Shown here: positions 1 to 27,220 of the stretch, in pieces
How the letters are laid out: every line of letters begins with the position of its first letter
Position numbering within the stretch: the stretch's first letter is position 1
NCBI GenBank assembly: GCA_964187785.1
Contig: OZ076419.1
Location: 35,712,001-35,776,000 of the forward strand
Direction: 5' to 3'
Source: Amphiscolops sp. MND2022
Taxonomy: Eukaryota
DNA: 64,000 bases
The notes under the pieces: generated by a model
Told to the model about the DNA's origin: nothing
The model's database searches: none
What the model saw: only the letters and a program-made list of their open reading frames with translations
Program-made: the position numbers and the translations under genes

Positions 1-1562
1 CCCTACCTGGAACATTGCCTATATAACTGCAATCGTTGATAACTTTGAAAACATTACTTATTTTTGATATTTGCAACACATGTAAAACAATTTATGTATT
101 TGTATTTGTAGTGCGGTTAATATTTGACAGCAAGCTATGCTGACAGGCAGAAAGGAAACAAGTTCAAATGATTGCCTGTTCAGTATAGCTAACATAGCCG
201 CATACGGCGAATTAGCCAATCAGAGCTTTCTAGTCATATTTATAGTTGCTGTAATACATTCATTTACTAATCGGAATGGACCGACACGGCCACTTGGCCT
301 AAGCGGTCTAATTGCATTTTGTTGATATTCTGTGTTATTATTGAATGAATAGAACAAAACGAGTACGGCTTTAATGACTAAATAGCCTCACTCATCAAAA
401 CGTTATTAGTGCTATTATAAAGAAATGAGGCCCGATACGGCCAGCAGACTAAATGAATACTCCCATTCATCAGAACCAAAACGAAATCGATGCTACCTTT
501 GATGATGTTATGATGAAATATATGTTATGAATTGCAGAGTATTCAACCTCATGTAAATATTAATATGTAGTGTTGTTTCCCGTTCATATAATTGAATGGA
601 GTTGAATAGTCCCTTGCGGCCACAAACCGTACAGGGTCAGCATGAATTGTTACGCATGTAAAACTGTTGCATACATGAATTTATGCTTGTAAACTATCTG
701 ACCTATACGCGGTGTGTCCTTGTCGGGCACTTTGATCTAGCCGCCCGCACAAACCTACGGTTGCTATTTATAGTCTTGTTGTATCTATTTTTAGCTTGTG
801 TGCTTTTTTTAGTAGCATGACTGTCAAAATCACGGATGTGATGCTAACTTGCGTATAAATATGCCCTCACAATTAATCATCCTAGGGATACGCTTATTGT
901 TCAGTTGCTCTTATACAAGTTGTACAAGGTTTACTGTGAAACCTAGTTCATATTGTCTACAGGAACAATTTAATTATTTTCTCCTGGTTAAATATTTTCA
1001 ATGCCCTCCACAAGGTGACAAAAGGCCAAGGCCAGAAAGTCAAGAGAACTAGATATGCTTTCTGATTACGGCAATATGGGCGTAATGTTAGATGAAGGAA
1101 ATTCCAATTCTATAGAAAGAGAATTGGACAGTCTGATTAATGTCCCTGAAGGGCAGCATGACTTTCAGTCCTTCCCGAACAGAGAAAATTCATCTCAAGA
1201 ATATGAAATTAGGGATATCGATAGTGAAAATGTGCCTGTTAGAGAAAGTAGACTAATGGAGTCGATAATTAAGTTGTCTGGAGAAATGAATGCTAGGATG
1301 CAAAGTGAAATGGAGACAATGATGGACCTAATGCACACACAAAATGGCAGGGCCATTAGCTCTGCCATAAGTGAGAGATTCATTCCAGAGATACAAAACT
1401 TGGTGGAAAATTTGCCTTTGAGTCAACATGGCGTTGAGCCGTGCACGTCCACAAACGAGGATGGAATTAGGAATGTATGGAAGAACGCAAATACAAAATT
1501 AACAAAGAAGGACTCAAGGTCCGTTTGTGATTTAAGGGATCATGCGGGCAACGTTCCTTACA
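1..1562 (+). repeat. 5' LTR of element A (start not in window)
   Basis: Positions ~780-1562 are repeated at 13436-15901, and homology stops at CA 15901, exactly before the TGG of the PBS. That 1-780 also belongs to the LTR is inferred from the ~1.7 kb LTR length of element B. Confidence 0.8.
854..860 (+). promoter_or_regulatory. Putative LTR TATA box (TATAAAT)
   Basis: About 147 nt upstream of the gag ATG (1001); retained in array copies at 14267 and 15183. Confidence 0.5.
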
Positions 1563-1575
1563 TGGTGACAGGAGC
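1563..1575 (+). promoter_or_regulatory. Primer binding site TGGTGACAGGAGC
   Basis: Directly abuts the LTR-terminal CA; identical in element B; 11/13 match to the PBS expected for metazoan tRNA-Leu(CAG) (TGGTGTCAGGAGT). Primer identity not established. Confidence 0.8.
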
Positions 1576-2655
1576 TAACGAACTCCAACAGCAGGTTCCT
1601 GAATTCCTCACAGGACGAATTCACTCTCAACCAGACCTTCAGAGACAAGAATCCACGCATGATACAACCCTGGACACAACTCTACCTGTGGCGGAGCCCG
1701 TTACAGCCGAACAGCCACAAGACCCCATCAACCGACTGACAGATGTCTTCGTAAATCTCCAAAACAAACCACAATCAATGAAAATTCGACCAGTCACGAC
1801 GAACCCCGTGACTTTCGATGGCAAAACAGAGAAATTCGAACTGTTTGAAGATCTATTTCATACGATGATCAAAATGCAGCCCGCCATGACTGAACAGATG
1901 AAAATTATTCATTTTCATTCACTACTTAGAAAGGGGGCTCTACAAACATTTCGTAACATAAACTCTAGAAACCGTCAAACACTGGAGGACGTATTAGTCA
2001 ACTTTCGCAAAAAATACGTCAAACCCGAGTCTCAAGCCAAAGCTAAACATAAGTGGCATCAACTTATTTTTGATCCCAATACGATGGTATTGCCCAACTT
2101 TCTCGAAGAACTTAACCAGGGTGCCGAGAAAGCCTTTGGAGAGAATGCTAAAAGCATGCCAAATTACCACCCAAACTCAAGCGATCGGTAAATATGGCCA
2201 GGCTAGAAAATGGGACATATGAGGTAATTGTGGCACATCTTGAAAGAGAACTTGAATTAAATGCCTTAGAAGAATCTGACGATTTACCCCTTGCCACAAT
2301 AGCTTCATCGTCAGGTAAGGCGCGAAACTTACTATCCAATGGCATTGATACCAACAAGAATAACCAATGCTCATACTGCCAAGCCGAAGACCATTCCCGG
2401 AAAAATTGCCCAAAACTCAAAAAGAAAGAAAGAAATGGAACCAAAAATGGCAAGAAGCCTCAACGCCCAACTTATCCAGAATGTCCCACCTGCAGCAAAA
2501 CTAATCACCCGGAAGAGAAATGTTGGCGTGGTGCCGGGGCCCACCTTCGTCCCAAACGGAATAGACAGGACTCCAAAAATACGGAGCCCTCTGAAGACGA
2601 AGACACCCGCACCAAAAACGAAAAACCCACAATCCAGTTTAAAGAAGCCTGATTC

Positions 2656-2665
2656 AAAAAACTAA
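2656..2665 (+). promoter_or_regulatory. -1 ribosomal frameshift site A-AAA-AAC followed by the gag stop
   Basis: TCA AAA AAC TAA in the gag frame; the -1 frame reads KKLILPRLQICDR into ORF 2668. Same motif in element B at 34210-34219. Confidence 0.75.
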
Positions 2666-5600
2666 TTTTGCCACGACTCCAAATATGTGATCGAATGTCG
2701 ATACAACAATATGTCATATCCGAACCCCCCAGCGTAACGTACAAACAATATTACAATGACATCAATGGAACACCATCAGTTGTCTGGCAGCAACAGTTGG
2801 AAAATGCCTATATTAAAACGTACAAAATGGTCCATAACGACCGCCCAGACCGATACTACGACATGGACTTTAGTGCAGCTTTTGAAACACGATTCAGACC
2901 GCTTCAACAAATCGAAGGTTATGACCCTCACTATATTGATCCTGAATATGGAGTAGACCCTTACTGGGACAATTCCCTCTATGACCAACAAAATTTGCAA
3001 TTCAAACGTGACGATTATCCACCAACAGATGATGAGGATGACCCCGAAACACCAGATAACAATAAATCAAGGGCGCTCATAGAATTGTGGCAGCCCTAAT
3101 TCTGAAATCACCAATGCAGAGGAAATAGAGGAACCAATTGTTGAGATTGGACTCCAATCCCAACCAGGTCTATTAGACGAATCAGCCTTCTTACATGTCC
3201 TAGTAACTAAAGAAAGGGAACCAGCATTTATACATTATCCACAAACCTTGGACTCAAATACAAAAGTCAGATGCTATATTTCCCGATGGACTTTGGGGAA
3301 CTAACCATAGACGGCCTCATAGACACTGGAGCCTTATCCAATGCACTTTCAGAAGCAGACCTCAGGAAAATACGCCTATTGGCGACCCTATCCTTAGTCA
3401 AAGAAGGACTTGCTCCAACATTTCAAATCATGGTCGCAAATGGGCAATTGGAAACCCCAAAAAGCACTGTTGAACGCAAGTTCGAAGGTAGAGACATTGA
3501 ATTCCATGAAATATTTATAGTAATGGATAAACTGACTGGCTCCATCATAAGCCTAACGTTCTCCAAAGAAATCATACAGTCCTGGACATGCGACAAGGCA
3601 TACTCAACTTCCCATAGGTATCCATGCAACTTTAAACGGCCGACCATAAATACTCTAACTTCATGGAACCTATACTTAACCCAGACGATGTCACAATATC
3701 GCCCAATGACCGTATCCTAGTAGAGATCAAATCCCAGATCTACAATGAAAACACTGTCACAGGGGTGTTACAACCCAGTGATCTCCTCCAAGAGGAACGC
3801 GATATCACATTTTGCGCCGCAAAAGGCACTTTGACTAATGGAACCGTCAACATCCATATCAAAAACTTCACAGATCAGCCTTACAAACTCAAGAAAGGAC
3901 TACACATAGCAAACTTCTCAGTATTAACACCGGAACAAATGAAGCACGTTAAACTAATCGACCCAGAGTCCACTTGGCACCTCCTCAACGAAAATGAGGA
4001 GGATGCGATCTATTATGTCAGTAGTCTACTCAAGGCCAACCGAAAGAATGATCAATACGAACAATACTGGTTTTTAACACCAGAAAACCCATGGGACGAA
4101 GATTCCCACACCACTATACAACGAATAATTCTACGAGAACTACGAAATCTCCGAGAAGCAGATCAACTAAATCCTCAGAATGATAAAGAATCACGCCGTA
4201 AATTTCTCAGTAATTTCGATTGGAAAGACTCGATGCTGCAACAACATGAAATTAAAAAGATCGAATCGCTCCTAGTTGAATGCCACGATATATTTGCAAG
4301 ACACCGATTTGACATCAGGATGAATGAAGAATTCACGGTCAAACTCACCCCTAAAGACGATTCGCCTGCCTATAGCCAAAGTCTTCCAACTACAGTCAAC
4401 CTGAAGGTAGACATACTTGTCGAGCCGGCCCTCCTACACAAACATGGCATAATAACCACACTGCCGTTTTCCAAAGATGCCAGCCCCATATTTGCACAGA
4501 AAAAACCGAACGGGAAGCTATGACTACTAGTCGATCTGAGGAAAATTAACAACCTCATCTCGGATGATTACATGAATAACAATCAGTCAGTTAGTACCCT
4601 AACAGACGCTGCGCAACATATGGCAGGAAAGAAACTGTTCTGTAAACTCGATTGTTCACAGGCATATCACTGCCTTCCAATGGCGAACCAAAAGTCCATT
4701 GAGATGCTTGCGTTCAATTTCGCAAGCCGCCCCTTTGCCTACAGGAGATTCGCGCAGGGCCTTAGCAGAGCCTTATCGGCATTTTCAAGCTTCATGCGAG
4801 AATACCTCGATGAAGTTAATAAAGCCGACCAATGTGCCCAATATGTCGACGACATAGGCATAGCTGCCAATGACGCTAATCACATCATCACCAACCTAAA
4901 AGCAACATTTGAATGCATCAGAAAAGCGGGACTCAAACTAACATTGCATGAATGCCACTTTGGGGCAACAGAAAAACAGAAATCGATTTTCTAGGAAGAA
5001 AAATCACTCCCGAAGGCGCCAAACCACAAAAGGAATGAATGACAACTTTCCTGGAACAACAAAATTCCCTAAATCCAAAAAACACTACAGCGTTACCTTG
5101 GATTCCTGAACTACTACAGGAACTACATCCCAAGGCTGTCTGAAAGTGTAGCCCCTATCTTCCAACTCCTCAAAAAGGACGAAAAGGTCCTAGTGACCAC
5201 AGAGCTAGTACAACAATTTAACGAAATTAATCAAGACCTTGACAAGTGTAGTCAACTGGCCCTTAAGCAACCACTACCAAACAAGCAACTAGTCCTCATG
5301 ACATATGATAGCTTTACAGCGGCCGGATACGCCATAATTACTGAGGACGACCCAAACCAAAAATATTCATACGTCAAAAAATCATACGCTCCAATTGCAT
5401 ATTGCCCAAAGACTTTTACCCCATCACAACTCAAAATGTCAAAATACGCCAAGGAATTCTTAGCGATCTACTATGCATTCAAAGAACTTGGACATATTTT
5501 CTGGGGAGCGACCAAACCGATCACTATTCTTACAGACAACAAATCGGTCACGAGATTCTTTCAGACGAAAATAATTCCTCCGGCACTCTGGAACACAAGT

Positions 5601-7884
5601 GACTATGTAATACAATTCAACTTTGTCATAGCACATTTTCCAGGGAAAAACAATACAGCAGCCGACTATTTATCGCGTACGGAAACGGACCCCAAAAAGA
5701 AACTAGTTCTAAAAATCCGCGAAGATTTAGAGACTAAACCTATTGAGGTAAACGACCAATACGCAGACGTGGCAGAAGAAGAACAGGTTTTCTTCACGGA
5801 ACACGATGATGAGACAGAAGCCCAAATTAGGGAACGTAAAAAACAAAGCCGTAATAACTTGATCGACCAAGAAGTCGTAATTCAAATCGACGCAATATCT
5901 GAGAACATAGTAGATGAAATCACAAACTTTACTCAAAAACTGCGCAGAACGAATCAAATCTTGCACGAACAATCCAAAGACCCTATATTGCGTCAACTCA
6001 AAGCCAAAATTCGGAACGAAGAATATTCTGAATAAGTACTCCAACAAGATTTTCGCTATAAACATTATCTTAACAATTAGGACCGAATAGTCCTGAAAGA
6101 CGAAATATTCACACGACGGTACTATGATGAAACTGGTCAAGTCAATTACCACCAGATACTCCTACCAAAACACTTACTAAAAGAACTTTTATATGCATTA
6201 CATAGAACCGCGCACAAATATCCGGGCATATCTAAAATGCTACAGGAAATTCGCCAGAAATCTTACTACCCCGGAAGAACAAAACATGTCAAACCATGGA
6301 TAGAAGGATGCGAAACTTGCGCGAAAGACAAGCGTGTTCCAAACAACTCAATAACTCCCGAATTGCTCAACTTGCCCGACCAGAGGACGCAATGCAAATT
6401 GACTTCTTATCAAATTAACTAACAAATGGAGGCTACCAAACCGTGATGACAGCGATAGACTTTTTCTCTAGACATCTTTTTGCCTACCCGTTAGTTGAAG
6501 CTATCGCTTCGAACACGGCAAAGGTCTTGATTGACATCATGACAAAACACACATATCTGCCGACTACACTCATCACTGACAAAGGAACTGCTTGCACAAC
6601 AAAACGCTTTGCAGAAATTACGGAAACACTCGGAATTACATAAAAATGTGCAACTACTAAACACCCGTAAACGATTGGCAAACTTGGAAAGACTCATGCC
6701 TCACTCAAAATGAATTTGAAAATAGCCTCAGATGAATATCGCCGACAAGGGCGTTAATACTTATTACTGGACGTACTCAACTACTTACCACTCCAGTATT
6801 GGTTGTGAGCCAAGTAAGGTCTTCCATGGACGGATTCCCTATAATGCCCTAGATCATCAACTTGGAAAAAATCCCAACAAGGATTTCTTGCCTACGACAG
6901 AATTCGCAGAAGAGTTACAACAGAGAACGCAAATTCTCATTGACAAAGCGAAGCATAATAATATGCAGTCATACCTGAAATACAAGGAGTATTACGACCG
7001 AAAAGCCAAGGCAGCTCCTCTGAGTGAACAAGATTTTTGTTTTTTTGCAGCCTAAAGCAGATAATCAGGGATCAAAAATACCGTTCAGGGAGTATCGCTG
7101 GATCGGTCCTTATCGAATTGAAAAGGTATTATCTAATGACAACTATGTTGTTCGCCGGTTAAATACGTATAAAACGCAGATATTACACCGAATCCGTCTG
7201 AAAAAATTTGTTCCAAATACACCTTTAGAGGACAAATGTTCCGAAGAGAAATTGCAACCTGATGATGAAATAATCATTCCGCAAGATGATTTATATGCCA
7301 TCTGATGGGAGGCAAACCTCGATTACCAAGTCTTCGAGCCGAGACGGGACGATAACACGAATGAAGAATCACAAACACCAGACAGCGATGCTAGTGGTAC
7401 AACTAGTGATTACGACATTTATGACAACGCTGATGACGACGCGACAAGGTCGGGAACGGCCACCAGCCGAGACGACATAATCTCGCGAGACGCAAATGAC
7501 GTCATCGAAACGAATGAACGAACCAGTATGAATGAAAATGAAGCAAGACCGCGTACGGCCACTAGCCGCGACGCGCCTGTTTTGAATGACGAAGATGACG
7601 TCAACGATAACACTGCAAAGAATAAACAAAGCAGCGAAATCAAAAGGCCGAATACGGCCACTAGCCAAGATAACCAGAATTCTGGCGACACGCCTACTGA
7701 AGCGCACAATGAAATTGATGATAGTACAAAAGATTCTCCCAAAAGAGGGGAGGATAATCCCAGGCCCGGAATATCCGATGATGCAATGAATGAAAAAATA
7801 GAGGAAAACTCTAGCCCTAGAGGAGGTAAATATAACCTTCGACCTAACTCCAATCCCAACTATACTGATGAATACAGATACTAG
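2666..7884 (+). pseudogene. pol: pol of element A: N-terminal acidic region, PR, dUTPase-like, RT, RNase H, integrase, acidic tail
   Basis: PR LIDTGA (~3320); RT FCKLDCSQAYH and QYVDDIG (~4640-4860); RH TYDSF...KEFLA...TDNK (~5300-5540); INT H..H/CETC then D..D core (6190-6700); WIGPY motif (~7100); tail ends PRGGKYNLRPN..YRY* at 7884. Confidence 0.93.
7451..7680 (+). repeat. Three 99-bp-periodic motifs (RxxTATSRD) in the integrase tail
   Basis: CGGCCAC(C/T)AGCC begins at 7457, 7556 and 7655. Confidence 0.7.
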
Positions 7885-8046: not shown

Positions 8047-11000
8047 TCAATTCTTTACGGCCTGTGAAGTTTCTGAAGGAGAAATACTCCCAAAGAAAGC
8101 AAGTTTGTGAGCCCGTCCAGAGCCATGAAGGACAGTACGGCCCACTGTGGAAGAAACGGACGAAGAACGAGATGGCAAAGTGACAACCTTACCTGGAGTA
8201 GATTTGAGCCCTTTGAAAGTGGTGGTCAAACTCTGTAGTAATGTAGACCGTCCAAAGGTATCCACATGTGCCCAAGGGTCCCCAGCGAACTGCCCAGAAT
8301 TAATTTGCTCATCCATCGCTCGCAACTTACTCATGGACGGTTCAGAAGTGCAGAGAAAAAAAGCTCCTGGGCAATTAGCCAGATAGGACTTCGCGGGCAA
8401 AAGCATATCAATAAGTCGGCATTTGGGATTGGAAGTATCCACCTCGTGGAATTTAATAGGTGGAAGACCTGTTCCGCTCTCAGTCAAACAAAGGCAACTC
8501 AGCCGGAAGAGGTAAAACAAATTCTTGCGACTTCGCAAGGCAGGAAGGACGATGAGGAAACCGACTACGTCTTTCACTAGGCCAGGCTGATCCTTAAGAT
8601 GAAGGAAACTAGTGCGGGAATACTCCACAAACTCCATATATTCATCCCGATAGTCGGACTCTGAGGCACGTTGGACACATCCACGCAAGCAGAAGGTTTG
8701 GAATAAGGCAGTAAAGCAAAAGCTTACTTGTTCCATGGGTAAGGAAACGAGAAAATGATGGTCGAAACAACTCATTCCATTGACGATATCAGCAATTAGG
8801 TGGACATCGCGCAACAGAGTCTCCAACAGATATTAAAAAATGCGAGCCTTTGCAGCAGAATTGTCACGTTCGCTAGTTATCAAGGCATCAATATCTCCGG
8901 AACTGCCCTCGACTTCACTTCGGGCATATTGGACTTTAGCCTTGCAGATGACATCAGTTTTGAGCTTCAGACGATTCAAGAAGTCCCGGTCAGAAAGCAT
9001 TCGAAGTCCTTCAGGATACAAATATAGTAACCCGGTCCAGTTGACGTCGCCGGGAATGCACTTGGGCAGGACGGCTCGGGAACAATGTTTTCGCAGGAAT
9101 TGGCAGAACTGTCCATAAACGAAGAAAGCCGCATCTCGGTGCCCAGCCAGACTGCTGTCAAAGCACTTGAAGTCTAAACATTACCTCTTTTCAGAAAGAA
9201 GAACACGGGAGTTGGAAGGTTATGAAAGAGTTATTCTCACAATCGCGAACAAGAAGACTGAAGATCTCCAATTTAATTACGAAGTACTCGTCCATCAGGA
9301 CCATCCACTCCATACTCTGTGGCTGCAATACAAAATAGAATAAAGATTCTGTAAAAGGGAACTCCAAACAAGGTTTTGAAGGTCATTACTTTCATTACAC
9401 TCAAAATTTGAGAAGTCCTGGGCTTATAAAGTGAAACGTGTTGTCTTTGAATTACGCATGTCACTAGATAACAACTAGAGCAGAATATGATATGTAAATT
9501 ACCCGATTTCTAACCCCTTGACCAGCTTGAGACGGAGCGTTCCGTGTTATGAAATCCCGGATGTTATGCCATTGTGTCACCATCTCAGTACATAGTGCAG
9601 GGATGCCCCGGAGATCCAAATCGCAAGCAGTGATTGCCTGGAAAACAGACATTTATCGCTAACAAATGACATCGGAGAGTGTGAAACTTGCTACCGTTAT
9701 AAGTGCCTGAAAACAATTCGCTACAAAAGAGGAAGAATATAACCTTCGAAAAATTTGGGTCCTCAAGCATCCAGACCTGATCCAGACTGTCATTGACGAA
9801 GACGACCATGTACTTCAACTGCGAAAAGAAGTCTATCTTCCCAAAAAAACTTTCGTACTTCTGGTGCATAAAGGCGTGGTAAAGACATAACTTCAAATCG
9901 GAAGGGGAATTGAACGGTGTGTTTGAATAGTCCACATTGGTCAAAGGTTTGCAATATAGCTGAAGGACAGCCGGAGATACTGACGAGATTGGGCTTTGCT
10001 GAGACGAAAGACAACAAACGTGCAACTGCTCCTAGGAAATTCCCTGGATAAGCTGACGCAAGGGGGTGACGACATAACTCCACTCGTTGGATGACATCAC
10101 CACTCCAGAATCGTACTGCCATGAAACAATGGCCTTTGCGGGTCGTAAACTCCAAAGAGTAGGTGCCTTCTTTGGTCACTTGGACAGCAATGTCCTCGGT
10201 ACAACGGAGGAAAATGTGGTGGAAGATTTTCTGGAAATCATTACAAATGAATCAACTAGACATGAGTACTCACCCTACCCGATTAATGAGGTAACACTTA
10301 CGGTGAGTTGTCAGATCCCCAATCGAAATCGGAGAAGAGCACTTGGTGGCTAGTGAAAGTCCCGAAACGAGTCCATAGACTCCGCAGCAAAGCCAAGTCT
10401 CCTCCGTGTGGTACGAAAAACCCGATAAGGGAGATCTGCGTAGTCATTCGCAATTCGTCCTGACTTGACGATCCAGCTAACGTGGAGATGTAGTCATCGA
10501 AGAAAGGAATTTTAACTCCTATGTCCACGAGAGGGACGTCGATGAACAATGGCTTTTCTTTCTCAAATCCTAATGGTGTAAGGATATATCCGTCTTTTCC
10601 TCGGACCTGGTGGGTAACCTTGCCAGTGTCAGTATCGACTTCGCTGAGGTGTTCGAACCTCCAACGTGCGTCCCGACGTAGATGTCCCTCAGTTTTGTAA
10701 TGACGTAAAACTTCCCGGGCACCTTTTGAGTAGATTGATATGTTAGCTTTACATATAGCTAACAGTAAAACTTGTACCGGTTGAGATGGGATCTAACGGC
10801 CCGGAGACGAAGGTTCTTGTCCATTGAATGCCTTTGAAATAGGCGTCTTTCATGACCTTGCCTGGTTTACTCAGCCTTTTCCTTCGTTTCCGTGGAGGGC
10901 TAGTAGTGACTGGCACGGGTGATTGCGCTTGGGAAAAGGACACTAAATGCCTATAGTCTCCACTGCTGTAGCTACTTCCAGAATTTGGGGTCAGTACTCT

Positions 11001-12045
11001 AGCGGGGTCAGGATTTTCAAGTGAGATGTTTAATGTTTTGGAGGGACGTACAAGTGGAGGGTTGCCCTCAGAAGCAGTCGCAATGTTTCCTAGATCCTCG
11101 TCTGAATTTATGGCTCCACTAGTGTACCCGTCACTTTCTGCAGCAGTACTTTCCCCTCTCAAACTCGATTCATACCCTCATACCCGGGGCCGGGCGTGCT
11201 TGCTCTTCGAGGAACATTCCGGGAGAGACGTTTGTCCAATGGAACACCCTCAGTTACCTTTATCACTAGTGACTTCATCATTTGGAATGATGAAATCACG
11301 GATTCGTCGGCGATGGTCCGTAGAATGGTGTGGACTTGGTTCTCACTGAATGCGACGGTTGCATGTCCGGCTGGAAGCTCGACTGGTACGTTGGTGGTGA
11401 AACACTTTCTGATGGCCTCTCTACCACTAGGAGTTAACTGTCTATCCGCAGTCATTACCGTGGTCCGGTAAAGTGCTTGTTCGGCATCACTCTTCCCAGA
11501 TGATTGGTATAACTCGTCATCCAAACTGGGAAAGACATTAGGACCAAGAGTGAACGTACCGGGCTTGGCAGATGGGAGGTCCACTCCGGAACTCTCGTAC
11601 AATTCTTCTACATCACTCGTGTCAAAGTAAAGTCCTCCTTTTGCGGGAGCTTCGGTTTCTACCCCTTCGGGATTTGAGTTGGCCTCAGTGGTTGCCTGTC
11701 CCACGGTTATCATTAGAGGAGAGGTTCAGACTCGGATGTTTTGGCTGCCACAGGAAACCTCTCTGTAACTGTTTGGTGTGTCTGCTCGAGTTGGGGTGCT
11801 GGATAACTAGAAACAGTCCTCTCAATAAAAGCAGTAACGCTCTCATCAGTAGAGCAACTCATGTTGGAAGCCTGAGATTCTGAGCGAACGTCCTTCTGTG
11901 GCTCTCCCTTCTCTTGAGTTTTCTCGTGTTCTTCAACGTCCTGGTTAACTACAGGGTTAGTGGATTCTGGCATGACCCCTTCGTTTGACATATCTGAACG
12001 AAAAGGGATAAACATCAGCGGATAAGTTCCCGAATACAAGTCCAT
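8047..12045 (-). pseudogene. Antisense cargo gene of element A (~1330 codons originally); BED-like zinc finger, putative hAT-transposase derivative
   Basis: Chain of minus-strand ORF pieces (11713-12171, 11159-11713, 10749-11162, 10298-10549, 9790-10179, 9585-10025, 9464-9652, 8976-9161, 8047-8826) collinear with plus-strand pieces in element B. Zinc finger C..ICKANISIYSKGAREVLRHYKTEGH at ~10680-10765. Confidence 0.75.
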
Positions 12046-13147
12046 GATACCACTAAACAAATTTTCTAGAAGTAAATTGAAATATACAACAAAAAGCCGA
12101 TGACGGCCTACTAAAATGGACAGGAAGTGAATGAGCGTGAACAGGTCCCGATCAAACCAATTTCCGCTCAAAATGGAACAAGACCAGATAGCTTACCTGT
12201 TGATGTGTGGGGTTGGACTAGTTGCGATGATGCCCTTGTAGAAGGGACACGGGAGACCTTGGCAGCAACCAGCCGAATATAGAGGAGATGCCCACGATCC
12301 GGTGATGGCAAGAAGATTGGGAATGTAAGTACAAAGAAGACTGTTGTAACTATATCACAGACTGATGGACTCAGAGGAATGAAACAACGAGAGAACTAAA
12401 TAATGTAACAATTGATGAGTTATGAAGTTGATGACAATGCAAAAGAATTGGGAGTTCGTGGCAAACTGGATTTGATGTCAAATATTTACACAATTATGGG
12501 TATTATTCGTGGATGGAATCTGCCAGAGAAATCCAAAGAGATATCTTTCGAAAGTCCTATTTTATCGTGGACTTATTATTTTTTACAATTATCATATTAT
12601 CTCATCTATTTCCTTATTTGGATTATTGTTATTTCTTCCGCCATTTTGAAATGCGGACAGCGAAGACGACTCCTATTGGCTATCGCGGCGATGAGACGTG
12701 CGTGGCCTCAAATCTCGACCATTAACTCTTGAAAGTTTCAAGTGGATATCAAGAGCTGGTAAACACTCAAAGGTGTCATTGATGTCTCCAAGCCGCATTA
12801 GGTAAACGACTGAAGTGATGGCGTTAACGAAGCGGCTTATTGTAATCATCAAAGGATGTTTGGAAGAATTTATCAATACGGATGATTATCGGGAAGGGCA
12901 AAACCCCGGGAAAGGAATCACGAGTCTTGAAGTAAATCTCAAATGAAATCAGGAAAAGAAGTTATCATTCTCTCACTTAAAGCCTACAAGTACAGTTGGT
13001 TTTACAACTAAAATTCATAAAACTAATTTCAATCATATACAAAATTGCAAAACAACGTATAAAAACGCGATACATGGCTGATAGATACCCGCAAGACTTT
13101 TGTGAAGAACAGAGCTGTTCTATTTATCCAGCGATGAAGAGGAGGAA

Positions 13148-13459
13148 ATGGACGCATTTAGTACAACGTTCGTGATGGACCTCCAACTATCGTCAGAAGC
13201 TGAAGAATACGACGACGAAATCATGATGTTGGCGCAGTGCGTCGAAATGCAATTATCGGCGCCTATACCAATCCCCGGGCCTTCGACACCGGAAACGGGC
13301 TGTTCTAACTTATTGGACAAGCCGTCAAGATACAGAAAGCCTAACCTGGCACACAGCCCGAGTCCCGCTCCAGACCAGTCTTTCTCCTTTTTGGGAAGGG
13401 GAAAGGGACCGATAAGGCGCAATGCTGTGATTCCATACAAGATTTGCTGTGAAACTTAG
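13148..13459 (+). CDS. Small sense ORF just upstream of the 3' LTR, unknown function
   Basis: 103-aa ORF preceded by acidic DEEEEMD; an analogous acidic stretch (SSEEEEEMD) lies at the same relative position in element B (~21300-21330, minus). The 3' end is cut by the LTR junction. Confidence 0.3.
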   Translation: MDAFSTTFVMDLQLSSEAEEYDDEIMMLAQCVEMQLSAPIPIPGPSTPETGCSNLLDKPSRYRKPNLAHSPSPAPDQSFSFLGRGKGPIRRNAVIPYKICCET

Positions 13460-15901
13460 TATTGTCTACAGGAACAAATTAATTATTTTCTCCTGATTAA
13501 ATATTTTCAATGCCATCCACAAGGAGACAAAAGGCCAAGGCCAGAAAGTCAAGCGAACAAGATATGCTTTCTGATAACGATATTATGGACGTAATGTTAG
13601 GTGAAGGAAATTCCAATTCCTAGAAAGAGATATGGACAGTTTGATTAATGTCCCTGAAGGGCAGCATGACTTTCAGTCCTTCCCGAACAGAGAAAACTCA
13701 TCTCAAGAGAATGAAATTAGGGATATCGATAAAAGAAATGAGCCTGTTAGAGAAAGTAGACTAATGGAGTCGATCAACATGTTGTCTGGAGAAATGAAGG
13801 CTAGGATGTCACGTGAAATTGAGACAATGATGGACCTCATGCACACACAAGTTGGCAGCGCCATTAGCTCTGCCGTAAGTGAGAGAATTTTTCCAGAGTT
13901 ACAAAACTTGGTGGAAAATTTGCCTTTGAGTCAGCATGGCGTTGAGCCGTGCACGTCCACATCGAGGATGGAATTAGGAATGTATGGAAGAACGCAAATA
14001 CAAAATTAACAAAGAAGGACTCAAGGTCCGTTTGTGATTTAAGGGATCATGCGGGCAACGTTCCTTACATGGTAAGGGAGCTAACGAACTCCAACAGCAG
14101 GTTCCTGAATTCCTCACAGGACGAATTCACTCTCAACCAGACCTTCAGAGACAAGAATCCACGCAGGATACAACCCTGGACACAACTCTACTTGTATCTA
14201 TTTTTAGCTTGTTTGCTTTTTTTAGTAGCATGACTGTCAAAATCACGGATGTCATGCTAACTTGGGTATAAATATGCCCAAGTTGGCCCTCACAATTAAT
14301 CATCCTAGTGATACGGTTATTGTTCAGTTGCTGTTATACAAGTTGTACAAGATTTACTGTGAAACCTAGTTCATATTGTCTACAGGAATAATTTAATTAT
14401 TTTCTCCTGGTTAAGTATTTTCAATGCCCTCCACAAGGAGACAAAAAACCAAGGCCAGAAAGTCAAGAGAACTAGAGATGCTTTCTGATAACGATATTAT
14501 GGACGTAATGTTAGGTGAAGGAAATTCCAATTCTATAGAAAGAGATATGGACAGTTTGATTAATGTCCCTGAAGGGCAGCATGACTTTCAGTCCTTCCCG
14601 AACAGAGAAAACTCATCTCAAGAGAATGAAATTAGGGATATCGATAAAAGAAATGAGCCTGTTAGAGAAAGTAGACTAATGGAGTCGATCAACATGTTGT
14701 CTGGAGAAATGAATGCTAGGATGTCACGTGAAATGGAGACAATGATGGACCTCATGCACACACAAATTGGCAGCGCCATTAGCTCTGCCGTAAGTGAGAG
14801 AATCATTCCAGAGATACAAAACATGGTGGAAAATTTGCCTTTGAGTCAACATGGCGTTGAGCCGTGCACGTCCACAAACGAGGATGGAATTAGGAATGTA
14901 TGGAAGAACGCAAATACAAAATTAACAAAGAAGGACTCAAGGTCCGTTTGTGATTTAAGGGATCATGCGGGCAACGTTGCTTACATGGTGAGGGAGCTAA
15001 CGAACTCCAACAGCAGGTTCCTGAATTCCTCACTGGGCGAATTCACTCTCAACCAGACCTTCAGAGACAAAAATCCACGCAGGATACAACCCTGGACACA
15101 ACTCTACCTGTATCTATTTTTAGCTTGTTTGCTTTTTTTAGTAGCATGATTGTCAAAATCACGGATGTCATGCTAACTTGGGTATAAAAATGCCCAAGTT
15201 GGCCCTCACAATTAATCATCCTAGTGATACGGTTATTGTTCAGTTGCTCTTATACAAGTTGTACAAGATTTACTGTGAAACCTAGTTCATATTGTCTACA
15301 GGAACAATTTAATTATTTTCTCCTGGTTAAATATTTTCAATGCCCTCCACAAGGAGACAAAAAGCCAAGGCCAGAAAGTCAAGAGAACTAGATATGCTTT
15401 CTGATTACGGTAATATGGGCGTAATGTTAGGTGAAGGAAATTCCAATTCTATAGAAAGAGAATTGGACAGTCTGATTAATGTCCCTGAAGGGCAGCATGA
15501 CTTTCAGTCCTTCCCGAACAGAGAAAATTCATCTCAAGAGAATGAAATTAGGGATATCGATAGTAGAAATGAGCCTGTTAGAGAAATTAGACTAATGGAG
15601 TCGATAATTATGTTGTCTGGAGAAATGAATGCTAGGATGCCACGTGAAATGGAGACAACGGTGGACCTAATGCACACACAAATTGGCAAGGCCATTAGCT
15701 CTCCCATAAGTCAGAGAATCATTCCAGAGATACAAAACATGGTGGAAAAACTGCCTTTGAGTCAACATGGCGTTGAGCCGTGCACGTCCACAAACGAGGA
15801 TGCAATTAGGAATGTATGGAAGAACGCAAATACGAAATTAACAAAGAAGGACTCAAGGTCCGGTTGTGATTTAAGGGATCATGCGGGCAACGTTCCTTAC
15901 A
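13436..15901 (+). repeat. 3' LTR tandem array of element A: ~2.7 copies of a 916-bp unit (LTR 3' half + PBS + ~125 bp internal)
   Basis: Junctions CTCTAC(C/T)TGT|ATCTATTTT at 14193 and 15109; ATGs at 14424 and 15340 (period 916); the last copy stops at the LTR-terminal CA. Confidence 0.9.
14424..15149 (+). CDS. Open Gag N-terminal fragment ORF in array copy 2 (241 aa, chimeric C-terminus)
   Basis: ORF track MPSTRRQK...; homologous to 1001-1690. Expression unknown. Confidence 0.45.
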   Translation: MPSTRRQKTKARKSRELEMLSDNDIMDVMLGEGNSNSIERDMDSLINVPEGQHDFQSFPNRENSSQENEIRDIDKRNEPVRESRLMESINMLSGEMNARMSREMETMMDLMHTQIGSAISSAVSERIIPEIQNMVENLPLSQHGVEPCTSTNEDGIRNVWKNANTKLTKKDSRSVCDLRDHAGNVAYMVRELTNSNSRFLNSSLGEFTLNQTFRDKNPRRIQPWTQLYLYLFLACLLFLVA

Positions 15902-18970: not shown

Positions 18971-20685
18971 TGTCGCGATTTTGTTCGCTATTATAAAAAT
19001 CTACTGAACTCTGGCGAGGCATTTGTCTGCCGTTTTGCTGCAAAAAACACCTTTTGGGACGATTTTCCCACGTTTTCTGAGTATTTTCTGCTTCGGGGTT
19101 CCGTTGTAGCCCACTGGACCTTTGGTCCTCCTTGGTGGAATTAGCCACCTTTGGGCCAGAATGTGGCCCGGCAGACCCTCGGTCCACCATGGTAAATTTA
19201 GTTCTCCTCTGCATTTTCAACGTATTTTGAATAGAAGGAAGTATTGTACTAGTTATTGCTGATGTTATTGCATCTTGTATTTGGGAATTCAGACTAGTTT
19301 TGATTTCCTAGAGTCTTCTGGATATTTGATAAAAAATTTCTTCAATAATCAACCCTGTCGTTTCAATAGTTATCTCACTGTTTTCTCTATTATTGGTGAC
19401 AAGTGACCTAAAGTCTTCTCCCGTTAAATTAGAGTTTCTTTGAGGCCTGCCTGACTCTGAATCCAAATTGAGTTCATTACCGCTTTGAACCCTTTCTTAT
19501 CACTTCTCGAGTAACTTCCTAACATTACATCAACATTTTCTACATCAGACATAATGTCTTACTGTCTTGAACGTCTTTCTTTAGCCTTTTGCTTGCTTGT
19601 AGAAGGCATTGAAGAATGTCCAAATTCAACAACAATAAATTACTAGTATAACTTGGATATCTATATAATTGTCAAAAAAAGCGTACAATCAGTATTGAAG
19701 GCAAACTTGTGATAACACAATTGGTGGCAGTAATTTCAAATCAAGTCGTCTCAAGGCAGGATTTTCAAAAAAGATCCCCGGTCTTCCTGCCTTTACTATA
19801 TATACTTTACATTGCATGACAAGCATATTTCCAGTGGTCATAATACTAAAAAGAGCAATTGGGTTGCTTTAGGGCATGTGATATCATAATTACGTCAAGA
19901 TACGTCATGTTATTTATATAGCATCAAAGTGAACCGGGTTCAAAGAGGAAAAAAGGGAAGCGTCTTAGCCTTTCAATTTGAAATGAATATAGTGTAGACA
20001 CACGTAAATATGAATGAGTACATGTCTATCCAAATACTACAAGACAGCTAAATACTATGATGGACGATTTGTCAGTTAATAATAGCGTACCTGACTTAAT
20101 GTCCGAATAACTACCTCACACTTCATGCAAAACCTTTGTTGAATAAATACATCCATCGCGTACCTTAGGTGCGCACAGCTACTGCATAGTATACTTGAAC
20201 TGCTGGGATGACAACAAACAAAACCATGGCAGACTTGTGGTCTGCACAACTTCTGCAAATATATGTAGTAATACAGCGCTGGTATTGGTTGATTAAACAG
20301 GGACGGCGTGTACACCGATCGTCAACAAAAGTTCATTTGAACTCGTTTCCTGATTGCGTTTAATGGAAAGTTTACAGCACCGTTAAATTACATTCAGTTT
20401 GTCATATAACAGTATCTTTCAATCAACTAAACAGGCACAAGACTTTTACTAATTGTTAAACATAACCCCATCGACTAAAGTCACAATATCTAATGTGGCT
20501 GTGTGGACTGCAAGTTTTTCACGGTGAAAACGTAAAATGCTAACAATAGAATAATATCGATTGAAGTTTTAAAGTACTTGTAGTATTAATTGTCTAAATT
20601 GGAATTACTCCGGGTAGCGGGTTAGTTTCTGAGTCTTCTTGGGGAATTTGATAGGAAATCCCGTCGCAAGCGGCAGCCTGCGACA
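18971..20685 (-). repeat. 3' LTR of element B
   Basis: Direct repeat of 35170-36902 (roughly 90% identical by eye); 6-bp terminal inverted repeat TGTCGC/GCGACA. Confidence 0.93.
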
Positions 20686-20694
20686 CTCCCCTAG
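20686..20694 (-). promoter_or_regulatory. Short polypurine tract (CTAGGGGAG)
   Basis: Immediately 5' of the 3' LTR on the minus strand. Confidence 0.55.
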
Positions 20695-22555
20695 GGACAA
20701 AGACAACTGTCCTCTGGTTCATACCTTCTAAGTAAGCATTCCTATGTCATTGTCGTTCTTGATATGATCCGTCTCGTCTCGAAGTTGACTCGAGGTATGT
20801 AAGGACCGCCGTTTCACGGATTTGTTCGTAGGAGCGTCCGCATAAACCGCTGCATTCGGCTCACCGCAGTTGGCCCCCATCCGAACACTGATTCATTGAG
20901 TGTGTGTTTTCAAAGGGACAGTGAAATCCGTGACATTCGGTCCTGCATAGTCATAACGTAAATAACTAGGACCTTGTTAACTCAGCGGGGGAGATAAGGA
21001 CGTGTCCACTAACGGAATCAGATTGGAACACTGACCGATGGGGCAATTGTTTTTCTGTCCCAAATCTTTTGGTCCTGTCTCAAGCTGAACTTTTGTGGGG
21101 TGAAATTCCTCTGGCCACAGGTCCACCAAGTCGTCCCACGGGAATTCAGGCAATCCATCGTCAAAACAAGTTGAGAGATCAGTTGTCATTTTGCGGGGCG
21201 TAGTCGGTTTTGACGATGGGAACGTGTCGATAGCAAGCAATTACCTCGATATCGCTGTCGTCTGAATGACGTGCGGTCCCTCTCCACAGACACCGATAAT
21301 ATGTCCACATCCATTTCTTCTTCCTCTTCTGACGAGAATAGGCCGGGCTCACCAGAGAATGTGTCATTTCGTCAAAGACAAATTGCATTTCCATTTTATT
21401 TTGATATCTCAGGAGAAAGACTTTCTTCGCAATCCAATTTTGGGGTTTATTAAAATCGACTGTGTTTCATTTTTAAATCAGAATGAATGATTCTCTCTTG
21501 GGCTAATGGTCTTCCCGTTTTTGCGGGATTTCTCCGGCGGGGAAAACTGTTTCTGAACTTACCTAAATCTTTACCGAACATTCCATATATGTAATCCTAC
21601 CCAATTTCCCGAATTGATAACTAAGGTAAACTTCATGGTAATTGGTACTTGACGGACTCTGTAGTTGTTTACTTTACCACTTGATAGCAGTGAGTTGGCG
21701 CATTAAGAGTTAACTCAAGGTAACTATCCGTAAATAAATCCACTATCGAAGACCTTCGGTCCGCGTGGCTACATCAACTGAATTGACCAATTGGGTGACG
21801 TTGATGAATGAAAGATGAAAACCTGATAGAGCGAATAAAAGTGGCGATTTTATCTAAACTAATACTGATCTACAAAGCAAGGTATAAACATGGATATCGC
21901 TGGCCGGTTCCATCCATGATGAAGAAGTTAACGATTAAATAATATAACCGAGGGAACATGAAATATGTAGCAAAGAAATATAGACCAAAAAACTAATCAG
22001 TAGGCCACGACGTCTATTCATAAGTCAAATAATTAACCGTCTTCAAGTTTCAACACTCTTAGAGTAATTGGTCTTTGAGTAATAGGAAGGTCTGAAAGTG
22101 AAAGTAATATTCATGCGTGATAGTAAACATTTCTGTGCCTGTCTCCTAGTCTTCTTCACATTTCTCGTCCTTTAAAGTCCTGCAATTTGTATTCGCTATC
22201 ATTTGAGTTGATTGTTACGTCAGTTTGAATTCAACCATCCCCTGTAAATTGGACCCTGAGTCGATACAGCTGCAGTGATAGCCAGATCACCGAGTGGTTA
22301 CCCGCTATACCCAGGAAGCGGAAAATTAAGCTTGGGAATTCGCCAACTATTTCCATAACCACCGACACACTAACTGGGCAAGAAAATTCTGCTTTTCTGT
22401 CATGGAAATAAGAACAGGTTGGTTCTCTAAATGCGTCTAGACTCAACTTGATCAACGTTTAGGTTTGACTAACTTTACTTCCTCCATCGTGAAATGTTTT
22501 CAAACTCCGTTGAATGAATTGAATTGTGCTTCCGGAAGCCATTAAAAGCGGTAAG

Positions 22556-25500
22556 ATGGATTCAATTGCAGGAAGTGAACCGCGCGAAACTATTCCTTTC
22601 TATTTAGCAAAAGGGGCAAACACCCAACCAGCCCAAACGTCAACTGGAAATAATGAGATTGGTGCCATCCCCGAAGCCGTAAATTCCAATGCAGCTCAGG
22701 AGACTGCTGGTACTAATCCCGTAGTAGGTATATCAACAAGTACACAACTGCCTTTACCCCAAACATCTTCTCACGAGTTACTCCCCTCTGGTATTGAGAT
22801 CATCGAGGATATTTCTTCTCAGTCGTCCTCAGGTCATGAGTGTTCTGGGAGGTCCAGTGTAGACCTTCCCACCACTAGAGACCTTGCGTCGCAGCTACCA
22901 CAATCACCAGACCATTCTTCCTCTCTGATCAAAATGTTAGCTTCGGACAATAAAAGTTCAGGAGAAAGTGTCCAAGCTTACTTTTCTTGACAAATCAAAA
23001 GCAGAGAAGGTGAGGAAACGAGCGGAAGTACCATTAGGGGAACTTTGCCCCCCATAAAGGAAAGTGAATGCAGTCCAATTACCACTACTCCTGTCAGTAA
23101 CCTCGCACAGAGAGAGTCCTACTGAAGTGGGTCTCACCAACGTGACCTTCCTTGACCACTACCACAATCCCTTCACACAGATGAATTGGTCAGAACCGAA
23201 GGGCCAACCAAAGACCCAGAATCAGAAAAGCCTCCACGTCATGCACTCGACTCCAAACTGAAGTTCGTTCCCAGTCCACCCTTCACGCAGGATGTGATCC
23301 GAACTGGCGAGTCACTGATGAGATGGAACAGGAACCCTGTACAGGACAGTTAGCTGCCTTCAGCAGTTCTGAGTTTGGGATTGAGACTGACGCCGAATCA
23401 GCGACCAATCCTGCCGGCTCTACTATCGGCCAGGCCATGAACGTGCAGTCTCGAGAGTCTTTACTGGAAGCAGGAGATTCTGCTAGCGCCTTCATACCAG
23501 TCGGTCTCCCCAGCACCTCCAGAAGTTCCAAGTTCCTTGCTTGGGCCTAGTAGTGGCGCTCTCAACAAGGAGTTTTTCTCCAATGCTGAACAGTCCGATT
23601 TCCCCAAAAGCCACCCGACCATTGCCTTCACTGAGGACCAGATCAGTACTGTCCTTAAGGTTGTGGCGGAAGAGACTATCAGGACATTCTGTGACATGAT
23701 GGAGAAGCTCATCCAAAAAGCCAGTGAGTTAAACCTGGGAGTAGGTCCTGGCCGCAACTTTCCTCCTGAGAATTCGACAGTCCATGGGACCCAAAGGTCA
23801 GGAAGTCTGACGTCAGGCCGACACAGTGATACCCGCGGAGCAATCCACAGCGATGATGACTTTTCCAGCATAGGATACTCCTATGAAAATGCAGAGTCGG
23901 AGAGAATTAGTGCACCACCTAGAGCTGGGGTTGAAGCAACATGCAGCTATAAGGTCCACCAGTCCAACACGGATACTTACGATGTTGACAGACCGGGGGG
24001 ACAAATACTAGCTTCTTCAAAGGCTGAGGCGATCAATGACCGTAGCAAGCGTACGCATAATCGTCAAGGACGCTTTTCCACAAGTTCCAGAGGGAGAGGG
24101 ACCAGGCGCACTGTCACGAGATCATGCAAGATATTGAAGGTTGAGTATTTCAAAGGGATGGAGTGGACCCGTACCTTTGTCTCTGGACCAGTAGACCCAC
24201 TGTGGAATCCTTACAAATTCTAGTGCCAGATATGTAAGGCCAACAACTCGATATAAGGAAAAGGAGCCCGTGAAACTGCGCCACAACTCCACAGAGAAAC
24301 ACCTCAGAAAAGACCAAAAGTGGAGGTACGAATACTTGTACAGAGTTGACCCTGTTACTCGTGCCAAAATCCATCAGGTCCGAAGGAGAGATGGGAAACT
24401 GCTGACGCCGTATCAGTTGGAAATGAAATTGCTCAAATTCATTGGTCGAAATCGGGCAGAAGTTGCCGTTTTATGATGAATATGTGGCCGGCGTGGACTA
24501 CATGTCTTCATCATCAGACAATCGTGCCAAGATCCAGCTCTCCATATTAGCCAAGTTCCTTCCGAGAAGTGGTGACTTGGAGCTCTTGAAGTCTTTCTGG
24601 AGCGACATCGGGGTTGTCGTGAATCACCAAACTCTTTTCACCGACGTCAATTGGGGAAGAGAAAGACGCAGCGTTAGTTTAAAATTACTTCCTTATTTAT
24701 CCAATTCATATTTAAGCGACTAGTATCCATAAAACAGTAGATGTTGTTCTAACGCTAAGATCAGCTCTGTCGTGTTTTCCTCAAGAGGACCAGAGGACCA
24801 GCCGTCTACAGGGCCAGGCAAGTGCTGAAGTGTGTCTCCTATCCTACCTTATGGGAGCATTTTCACCTAAACCTAGTTTAATCAGCTGCACTGGTTGTAG
24901 TGTCCGCACGGTACAATTGCTCGATCAAAGCCCGTATAGCAGTTTCAGCATCCAAAGTCCACCTTTGTCAATCTGAAGTCAATCTGTCACAACTAATGCA
25001 CAAAAAGAGTAACAGTGTAATTGACCGGATATATTTCTTCTCCGTGGTGAAATTTGTAGTAGTTTTACTGGGAGGTTGTGTCGAGCTGGATTGGGTTCTT
25101 CTTTCTCCTGAGCTATCCAAGGTACGTTGTATCCTCTTTATCTCTTCTATATTCTACGTATTTAGTCCCACCTGGGAAGATTCCAGTCCACTTTTACATT
25201 ATTCGAGCATTTCCACCTCTAAGGCTCTGTTGTATCCCAGTAGACCTGTGGCCCGCTACCATGAATTCCATCTGGTAATTGTCATATCCATGGTACTTGA
25301 TCATTGAATTCGTTCAGGCCACGAGGTCTTGCCAACATGATGTTAGTGGGCTGCCGGCGCTTTGTCAAGAATTGACCGATAAATGGGCTGAAGTTTGAGT
25401 ATTCTTAGCAAGTATGCACCTACCCAGCAGATGCAAGGAGTCCGTAAAAAGGTAATTCTTACATCTTGTGTTTAGTTTGTTGTACCTTGGGGCTAGTCCA

Positions 25501-26450
25501 GTTCAAATTCCCCAATAATCTCAGCCGCAGAATCTGGAACGGTCGATCGTACATGACAACTTGTTTCTTAGCCGACTGGAGTTGTTTCAGCGCCGTGTCC
25601 GGGACTGTAAGTGGTGTTCTTGTGAACTAGCAAGTATATCATACTAGTGGATAGTCTAATCATTTTTTTCTTTAGATACAGGAGGGAAATTTCATTGTAA
25701 ACCTCAAATCACGACGAGATCGTGGTTTCCACGTCTACAAGGAGTTTTGCCAATTCCTGCTCAAGCTCGGATCCAGGTATGTACGGGCTAACAGTCTTCC
25801 CGCTGATGACAATTACCACGGGATTCTCAGTCTGTCATTTCCCGATGCCAAGGCCCTGACTATTGGAAATTTTATCACTCGTTCAAAACTGGGAACTCGG
25901 CTCAGTACTTGTTGTAGGCGAAAGGCTGAGAAAGAACTGGACGAAGAGCAGAACAAGTCTCTCAGTCTGGATGAACTTACTGCTAATAATCGAGAGGAGT
26001 TTGGGTGGTCTGCCAGAGGGTATGTGGCCGATTTACTCAAGACGACTCAAGGGCTCATCTGATTTACGTCTGATATCGTAAAAGGCTTAGGGTCCTTTGA
26101 CCTTGAGATTATGCTGGTTGACCCAATAAAGCAAGCAACTTATTGTTTGAAGCAGCTGTTTACCAGTTTTCGACTACGCGGGATCTTTCAGGATGACGAG
26201 GAGACCCTTTACTTAAAAGAGTATCTCCCATTTATTGACGCCTTGCGTCGTTCACACCCTGATGTCCAGCAACTTAAATTGCTTATCGTGGATGCCGTGG
26301 AGTTTATCACCAGACAAGATGCAATGAAGTCACGGCGATACTTGAACCGAATCTTTCGTCTCCGTTGTCTCTGTCTTGACGAGCCTCAGTTCTCATTTCC
26401 AGCAGTGAGATTCGGTTCTGTGAATACCGATGACGCAACTTGGTCACTAG
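22556..26450 (+). pseudogene. Antisense cargo gene of element B (homolog of 8047-12045), 3'-truncated
   Basis: HPTIAFTEDQISTVLKVVAEETI ~ HATVAFSENQVHTILRTIADESV; FKGMEWTRTFVSGPVDP ~ FKGIQWTRTFVSGPLDP; CQICKAN..KGARE.LRH.STEKH (24224-24303); IFRLRCLCL ~ LFRLSCLCL. Confidence 0.8.
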
Positions 26451-26558
26451 GTGTGCTTGGTCATTATATCAATAATAACCTTTGCCGTATTTGTGGCCGA
26501 AGCGTCTGTAACTGGGTAAGCAAAAAGGTATCTTGAAAATACGTCCATTGCGGTTGTT
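26451..26558 (-). pseudogene. Integrase core fragment of element B left of the nested transposon
   Basis: Reads TAMDVFSRYLFAYPVTDASATNTAKVIIDIMTKHT, continuing GGYENI from 31301+. Confidence 0.85.
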
Positions 26559-27102
26559 CAGTACGACGCATAACCCTACACTTTTTGTGCAGCTCAAAGT
26601 TGAGCCGCTTGAGCAGTGGAATCCTGGGCCAAGCTTTAAAACATACCAACCGCAAAGAGCGAAATTCGCCGCGTGGAATTCAGGGACTAATACCGCAGTG
26701 TATAATTTCTCGCAATTTCAGTTGACGGTAAGGCAAAATCGCGGAATCCGCTGCATTGATCAGCTCGAAATCGTGGAATCCGCTGCTTACAGCGGATTCC
26801 GGGGCAGTGACAGCGGAATCCGGACCAGTACCAGCGGAATGCGGGGCAGTGACAGCGGATTCCGAAGACTAATGCGTGCAAGTATTAAAATGTTTGTTTT
26901 GTGAAGCGGAATCCACTGACAGCTCTGCGTGACATCTGTTTCAAGTTGTATGACAACGGAATCCGCAGATGAGTGCGGGCTAGTATAAAGCTTGCTGTAT
27001 ACATTTATTATTGTGTTTAATAGGGCGTATACAGTTTCTGGGATTAGGATAAGCAAGTCTCCTTGATGTATTATAGGCCTTCATGAATGGGATCCACTGT
27101 TG

Positions 27103-27220
27103 TCTCTGGGATTAAGATTACTGTCTCCATTATGTATTCTAGTATGGTCTCTGGGATTAAAATTACTGTATCCATTTTGTATTCTACTATGGTCTCTGGG
27201 ATTAAGAATACTGAGACAAA
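27103..27220 (+). repeat. 45-bp tandem repeat with further degenerate copies to ~27730
   Basis: TCTCTGGGATTAA starts at 27103, 27148 and 27193. Confidence 0.75.

Follow-up and report, generated by a model that had tools for sequence, protein, structure and literature searches.

A clade of Gypsy LTR retrotransposons of about 16 kb in Amphiscolops sp. MND2022 carries, as a fixed component, a gene that runs antisense to gag and pol. This is a real accessory gene that is under selection and is predicted to bear introns; its ancestry from a transposase is probable and its function putative.

The window, that is, the whole 64,000-nt stretch of contig OZ076419.1 analysed here, belongs to a host genome of 1.07 Gb and holds two elements of the clade. 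In the first, the antisense gene lies 3′ of, and opposite to, the coding sequence for protease, a dUTPase-like protein, reverse transcriptase (RT) and RNase H. Pfam matches were obtained for protease, RT and RNase H, with a dUTPase-like match below the cut-off, and the pol order protease–RT–RNase H–integrase fits Ty3/Gypsy, the integrase being assigned by its HHCC motif and position. Apart from the antisense gene, the layout is as follows:

Positions 1 to 1562, forward strand: 5′ LTR, which starts about 60 nt outside the window; the gag ORF already begins within its 3′ third.
Positions 1563 to 1572, forward strand: primer-binding site TGGTGACAGG, inside the gag reading frame.
Positions 1001 to 7884, forward strand: decayed gag and pol (protease, dUTPase-like, RT, RNase H, integrase).
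Positions 12981 to 13447, forward strand: truncated remnant of ORF3, a second accessory gene, head-to-head with the antisense gene.
Positions 13436 to 15901, forward strand: rearranged 3′ end, in which the 3′ half of the LTR together with the primer-binding site is repeated in tandem (916-nt unit, about 2.7 copies).
Positions 18971 to 36902, reverse strand: another element of the clade, divergent from the first, with LTRs at 18971–20685 and 35170–36902 that are 88% identical, and a GTTTG duplication.
Positions 22556 to 26690, forward strand: the second element's copy of the antisense gene, decayed, with introns 2–4 at the same sites and the intron 1 acceptor not placed.

The two copies of the gene match each other with a tblastx E value of 2e-81, and ORF3 measures about 275 aa in relatives. 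Full-length relatives are 15.7–16.5 kb long, with TG..CA LTRs of about 1.5–1.95 kb that are often at least 99% identical within a copy, 5-bp target duplications, a primer-binding site and a polypurine tract. The element, called a giant Gypsy in an earlier sequence-only reading of the window, is thus large but not extreme.

That reading had also described the gene as a decayed frame of about 1330 codons carrying a series of short motifs. The motifs do occur in the order it gave, all on the reverse strand and spread over three frames, and the window copy is indeed decayed: the frame shifts at four points in exon 1, one of them within the finger, and at one point in exon 2, and exon 5 contains two stops. 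The single long frame, however, gives way to five coding exons and four GT–AG introns:

Positions 10302 to 12045, reverse strand: exon 1, with the start peptide, an acidic S/T/P-rich region containing a conserved helix, the basic cluster (about 10875–10892, reverse strand), the C2H2 finger (about 10682–10765, reverse strand) and a helical segment.
Positions 10231 to 10301, reverse strand: intron 1, GT..AG, phase 0.
Positions 9744 to 10230, reverse strand: exon 2, predicted to form an RNase H-like core; strand 1 holds an invariant Glu, and a near-invariant His follows strand 5.
Positions 9638 to 9743, reverse strand: intron 2, GT..AG, phase 0.
Positions 9503 to 9637, reverse strand: exon 3, 45 codons, with a conserved LC..W.
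Positions 9323 to 9502, reverse strand: intron 3, GT..AG, phase 0.
Positions 9241 to 9322, reverse strand: exon 4, 82 nt.
Positions 9174 to 9240, reverse strand: intron 4, GT..AG, phase 1.
Positions 8047 to 9173, reverse strand: exon 5, predicted all-helical, with a near-invariant LxCxC.

Because introns take up about 424 nt of the 3999-nt span, the product comes to about 1200 aa rather than 1330. In 22 aligned copies the splice sites are identical across divergent subfamilies: for introns 1 to 4, the donor GT is found in 21, 19, 21 and 21 of the 22 copies and the acceptor AG in 18, 21, 21 and 22, and all eight borders are GT or AG in the window copy. Identity to the reference, measured in six copies, was 0.59–0.87 in exons versus 0.28–0.69 in introns. 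In young copies whose pol frames are long and open, the antisense region reads as a frame of about 600 aa, short middle pieces and a frame of about 390 aa, and these copies share interruptions with GT–AG borders, which rules out frameshift decay as an account of the middle of the gene. The four introns are predicted to be spliceosomal.

Proteins already deposited in databases bear on the same borders. Most of them stop right after the first donor, whereas intron 1 is exactly absent from P0002, P0174 and P0273, apparently also from P0220 and P0257, and intron 2 is exactly absent from P0221. These intron-free proteins may be transcripts or intronless lineages; either way they support the intron borders. 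At the reference locus (L017) the open coding sequence is 3570 nt counted from the second ATG, and the first ATG adds 18 codons. The upstream ATG corresponds to position 12045 of the window and gives a product of about 1207 aa; the start peptide it opens (MD..GS.P..F) recurs in conserved form in each of the three clades and among database proteins, which disfavours a start at the second ATG (position 11991). Behind the stop, an AATAAA hexamer was matched in 4 of 9 copies and is not conserved.

The gene belongs to the element. The 50 genomic loci taken for comparison came from match lists and were chosen to span subfamilies, and so form a non-random sample. At 51 of 52 loci, all picked by presence of the antisense gene, the gag and pol of the family lie upstream on the opposite strand; at the single exception an unrelated RT adjoins and ORF3 is still there. 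Another locus, where the most divergent of the database proteins matches best, proved to be a Gypsy copy too, and no host-gene-like copy outside a Gypsy context was found among the 53 loci examined. Searching the genome with exon 2 gave 6150 first-look candidates, and all 150 that were scored had E ≤ 2e-45, placing the feature far above chance; a query from the third clade gave 8333 candidates, 148 of them scored. Among 1.84 billion proteins there were 949 matches at E ≤ 0.001, of which the best 150, with lengths of 90–734 aa, fit the family profile at E ≤ 2e-33. Separate searches for longer homologues gave none, which is weak evidence. The idea that ENA matches come from other species was ruled out, since P0118 is 100% identical to this genome.

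The sequence-only reading had itself named the sign of an independent insertion, its own terminal inverted repeats (TIRs). The best inverted match around the gene was 14 nt for the window and 13–17 nt for ten other copies; five shuffles of each gave 13–19 nt, and a fixed family component is what the loci bear out.

The dN/dS check suggested in that reading points the same way. By the Nei–Gojobori method on 21 chosen pairs, many of them saturated, subfamily pairs with measurable dS (0.3–3) gave 0.03–0.05 for the finger region, 0.05–0.06 for exon 2 and 0.06–0.15 for exon 5, so that values between subfamilies mostly fall within 0.03–0.15; one deep pair reached 0.35 in exon 2. Two young sister pairs spanned 0.10–1.08, as expected from mutation after insertion. 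As read from these codon comparisons, purifying selection acts on the antisense gene between subfamilies. The broken state of the window copy might invite the view that an independent DNA transposon sits nested in this one element, or that the gene is neutral, decayed cargo, but a position common to 51 of 52 loci, inverted matches within the range of the shuffles and dN/dS far below 1 largely refute this, and we attach next to no probability to it.

What the gene encodes can be approached through its parts. Exon 1 begins with some 375 acidic, S/T/P-rich residues containing one conserved island, followed by a basic cluster and the finger. The spacing of the finger, C-x2-C-x16-H-x5-H, and an upstream Trp are invariant. 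The finger had been taken for a BED finger; its spacing stands as described, but it does not match zf-BED (PF02892), and C2H2 models of the ZN292/KIN17 type alone respond, below threshold.

The AlphaFold2 model was made from the natural frame reading through intron 1 and has a mean pLDDT of 48.7. Within it, exon 2 is modelled at pLDDT 54–73 as a helix followed by strand–strand–strand–helix–strand–helix–strand, and VIA-align matched this part to RNase H-like folds, with EutJ at the top (Z 6.9, rmsd 3.5, 84 aligned residues). Two integrases matched at Z 5.8 and 5.5, the former being the SIV intasome (rmsd 3.2, 80 aligned). Residues 143–263 of the Hermes transposase aligned at Z 5.2 (rmsd 6.0, 111 aligned), ranking 39th of 50, under actin-fold kinases; this is the longest alignment of the 50, with about nine aligned residues stemming from translated intron. 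No structural match reached Z 8, so that the general fold alone is suggested. The model thus suggests that exon 2 forms an RNase H-like core, in agreement with the RNase H-like segment proposed from the sequence. Exon 5 is modelled as all-helical (pLDDT 52) with generic matches only, and Hermes was not among the matches listed for it.

We placed the catalytic sites by comparison with the hAT ORFs of this genome and with known motifs, so that their register is inferred. At the inferred first site, 44 exon 2 sequences have Thr (24), Glu (14) or Ala (6) and never Asp, consistent with the earlier remark that the first catalytic Asp is missing; at the inferred second site they have Cys (39), Ser (4) or, once, Asp. 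No Asp of a DDE triad is therefore conserved at either position. hAT transposases have a C/DxxH motif followed by a helical insertion domain; here 43 of 44 sequences have a His past strand 5, without the Cys or Asp of that motif. In exon 5, two Cys are present in all 32 sequences and a Glu near the inferred third catalytic site in 25.

One feature speaks against a dead enzyme: a Glu two residues ahead of the inferred first site, in strand 1, is invariant in all 44 sequences and could be a working acid. Together with the near-invariant His, the two Cys and the strong conservation overall, it could belong to a rearranged active site, as in a nuclease or recombinase that works on the DNA of the element. 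A second or third invariant acid is absent, however, with the exon 5 Glu at only 25 of 32, and there are no TIRs, so we regard an enzyme still at work as very improbable.

The descent of the gene is a separate matter, and here no sequence test gave a link to hAT. A hAT origin, as the sequence-only reading had proposed, was not demonstrated: Pfam zf-BED and Dimer_Tnp_hAT have no match in the gene, searches with PDB profiles returned nothing meaningful, and hhalign against 15 hAT pieces of the same genome, a shallow set covering part of the hAT subgroups, gave probabilities of 0.1–0.2%. When reversed decoys were included, in hhalign and HMMER, they outscored real hATs. The C-terminal dimerisation domain expected under that proposal did not appear, since PF05699 found none of 17 exon 5 members at E ≤ 10, while 150 other loci of the genome do match this Pfam family. 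A DUF4371 profile run against the genome hit none of seven candidates, and its control was equally silent, so that this run says nothing either way.

hAT transposases run from a finger through helices and an RNase H half to a His and a long helical region. This order is that of the antisense gene, and it speaks, with the length of the Hermes alignment, against reading the gene as a captured host gene or as a transposase of another superfamily that combines an RNase H-like domain with a C2H2 finger; MULE, P and Kolobok are such superfamilies. The negative hAT tests and the generic RNase H-like proteins at the top of the fold matches favour a non-hAT source, whereas the lack of any host-gene-like copy outside Gypsy elements at the 53 loci weighs against a host gene, and on balance we find a non-hAT source unlikely. 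In our judgement, the antisense gene likely descends from a DDE transposase, and we lean slightly towards hAT as the specific ancestor.

The gene has a history partly its own within the clade. For the trees, 39 of 42 loci passed the coverage filter; removal of six near-duplicates left 33, of which 20 were taken into approximately unbiased (AU) tests. Clade II (11 loci) and clade III (9 loci) are monophyletic in both the pol tree, which is noisier through decayed copies, and the antisense-gene tree, and to that extent the congruence asked about in the sequence-only reading holds. It fails locally: each alignment rejects the topology of the other (delta logL 178 and 1989; p-AU <1e-100 and 0.0003), and L019 and L020 group with L065–L067 in the pol tree (support 1.00) but with L014 and L017 in the antisense-gene tree (0.99). 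Likewise, L019 and L065 differ by an RT dS of 0.20 but by an antisense dN of 0.38–0.56, and L014 differs from L061 and L062 by a gag dS of 0.13–0.15 with antisense dS saturated. Monophyly of clades II and III in both trees indicates a long-standing presence of the gene in the lineage, and from the conflict the antisense cassette appears to have been swapped among close pol lineages.

Our preferred explanation, which we hold at about even odds, is that the antisense gene comes from a cut-and-paste transposase, probably a hAT, that has lost its catalytic acids and now serves as a nuclear DNA-binding helper keeping the element transcribed or unsilenced. A DNA transposon would once have inserted in reverse orientation and then lost its ends and its catalysis. 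Its introns would persist because the packaged genomic RNA reads the other strand and cannot splice antisense introns. A promoter in the gap of about 1 kb shared with ORF3 would yield a spliced mRNA; its product would reach element DNA by means of the basic cluster and the finger, with the acidic N-terminus serving to recruit host factors. Acting on the element's own sequences, the protein might sustain expression or resist silencing, and template switching could swap the cassette between pol lineages.

A dead transposase could instead act at integration rather than in transcription, by tethering or importing the pre-integration complex or by choosing targets. The finger, the basic cluster and the transposase-like core of the model would suit such a role, which has been proposed for plant antisense ORFs (PMC7264820). 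The cassette, however, combines freely with different integrases, and on inspection the insertion flanks have no obvious target motif in common, so we think a role at integration improbable. The transcription-helper reading can also be extended into a fuller scenario, which we put forward tentatively and at less than even odds: an LTR clade may have domesticated an entire hAT transposase gene, its four spliceosomal introns lying antisense, as a dead factor that binds DNA, and may have swapped this cassette, together with a neighbouring SUMO-binding-like ORF, between pol lineages as an anti-silencing module.

The gene family offers a tractable case, as its scored copies number well above one hundred, it has three deep clades and selection is strong, and cassette swapping supplies natural contrasts for tests of function, in which pol is constant and the cassette differs. 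It indicates that a reverse-transcribed genome can retain spliceosomal introns when they are antisense. ORF-based annotation of transposable elements fragments such genes, and both the first reading and the protein databases that were searched show this. If the candidate DNA-transposon ancestry is true, one class of mobile element has domesticated another. Introns, cassette swapping, the second accessory ORF and the plant precedent had all been absent from the sequence-only reading.

Antisense accessory ORFs in Gypsy elements are already known from plants; what appears new here, on sequence and modelling grounds, are the introns and the predicted transposase-like fold. The statement that nothing of the kind had been described therefore holds in part: we found no report of a multi-intron, transposase-fold or hAT-like antisense gene in Gypsy, in a search of mostly open-access literature without Repbase-type records or supplements, so that an earlier description is possible, while antisense accessory ORFs of plants have been published (PMC11963269, PMC7264820). 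According to PMC11963269, 97% of Retand clusters have antisense ORFs bearing Transposase_28, in flowering plants only and with an unknown role. For Grande, the antisense ORF gives a nuclear protein from its own promoter, and PMC7264820 leaves origin and role of such ORFs open, reports no similarity to other transposable elements and considers spliced antisense transcripts worth seeking. Retand, Grande and RIRE2 resemble the present family as Gypsy elements in which a conserved ORF lies antisense, between pol and the 3′ LTR (here at 51 of 52 loci), and DNA binding, proposed for the plant ORFs, may apply here as well. Unlike theirs, the gene has no Pfam match to PF04195 (Transposase_28), and it differs from Retand in its four introns, C2H2 finger and predicted RNase H-like core, the word "intron" not occurring in the Retand paper (PMC11963269).

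With hAT transposases (Hermes, PDB 8edg) and domesticated ZBED-type genes the gene shares a finger, a helical region, an RNase H half followed by a His, a long helical region and the weak match to Hermes 143–263. It differs in having no DDE triad, TIRs or Pfam or profile match, in lying inside a retrotransposon and in its acidic, low-complexity N-terminus of about 375 aa.

HBZ of HTLV-1 is a small spliced bZIP protein. It is an antisense nuclear accessory protein of a retroelement (as PMC11963269 describes it), and, compared by description only, the gene studied here resembles it in being antisense and accessory, with a nuclear location known for HBZ and predicted here. The LTR elements of bdelloid rotifers, as described in PMC5408684, place a dUTPase between protease and RT and have captured an ORF3, with modular gain and loss; their captured ORFs are of env, GDSL or DEDDy types and show no significant departure from neutrality. 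The dUTPase position, the captured extra ORFs and the modularity are shared with the present clade, whereas its own additional gene is antisense, predicted to bear introns and, by its dN/dS, under purifying selection.

The gag reading frame starts about 560 nt into the 5′ LTR and continues across the PBS (window 1001-1572), an arrangement common to all three deep clades of the family. Downstream, a dUTPase-like domain is predicted, and also appears, at E 0.0006, in the second element of the window, a divergent member of the same Gypsy clade:

Window 3636-3930: sub-threshold (E 0.003) dUTPase-like domain, flanked by protease on one side and RT on the other

In place of its 3′ end, the window element carries a tandem array at 13436-15901, made of about 2.7 units of 916 nt that are 92-95% alike and each comprise the LTR 3′ half and PBS. 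Elsewhere in the window, a MITE-like inverted repeat lies at 38214-38607, with arms of 134 nt that are 99% complementary.

The antisense zinc-finger gene is accompanied by a second accessory ORF, ORF3, of about 275 aa, with a match in 49 of the 52 loci:

Window 12981-13447, plus strand: ORF3, truncated in the window copy
L017:3754-4677, minus strand: ORF3, reference-locus copy

The two genes are arranged head to head, and the end of ORF3 extends into the 3′ LTR. Both are kept in a copy (L063/L073), possibly a non-autonomous form, from which nearly all of gag-pol is gone and whose LTRs are 99.9% identical. Because intron 1 of the antisense gene is stop-free and in frame in some subfamilies (L046:4998-7568; L101:2499-5039), an intron-retaining product is predicted to be possible there. 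Two very divergent database relatives of the antisense protein, P0220 and P0257, whose best match in the Amphiscolops sp. MND2022 genome is at about 28%, have a short N-terminus and appear to lack intron 1; they may be nearer to the presumed DNA-transposon donor.

A Pfam scan of ORF3 returned no match. The protein has a conserved CxxC and two putative SUMO-interacting-like motifs, each a hydrophobic stretch followed by an acidic SSD/E.
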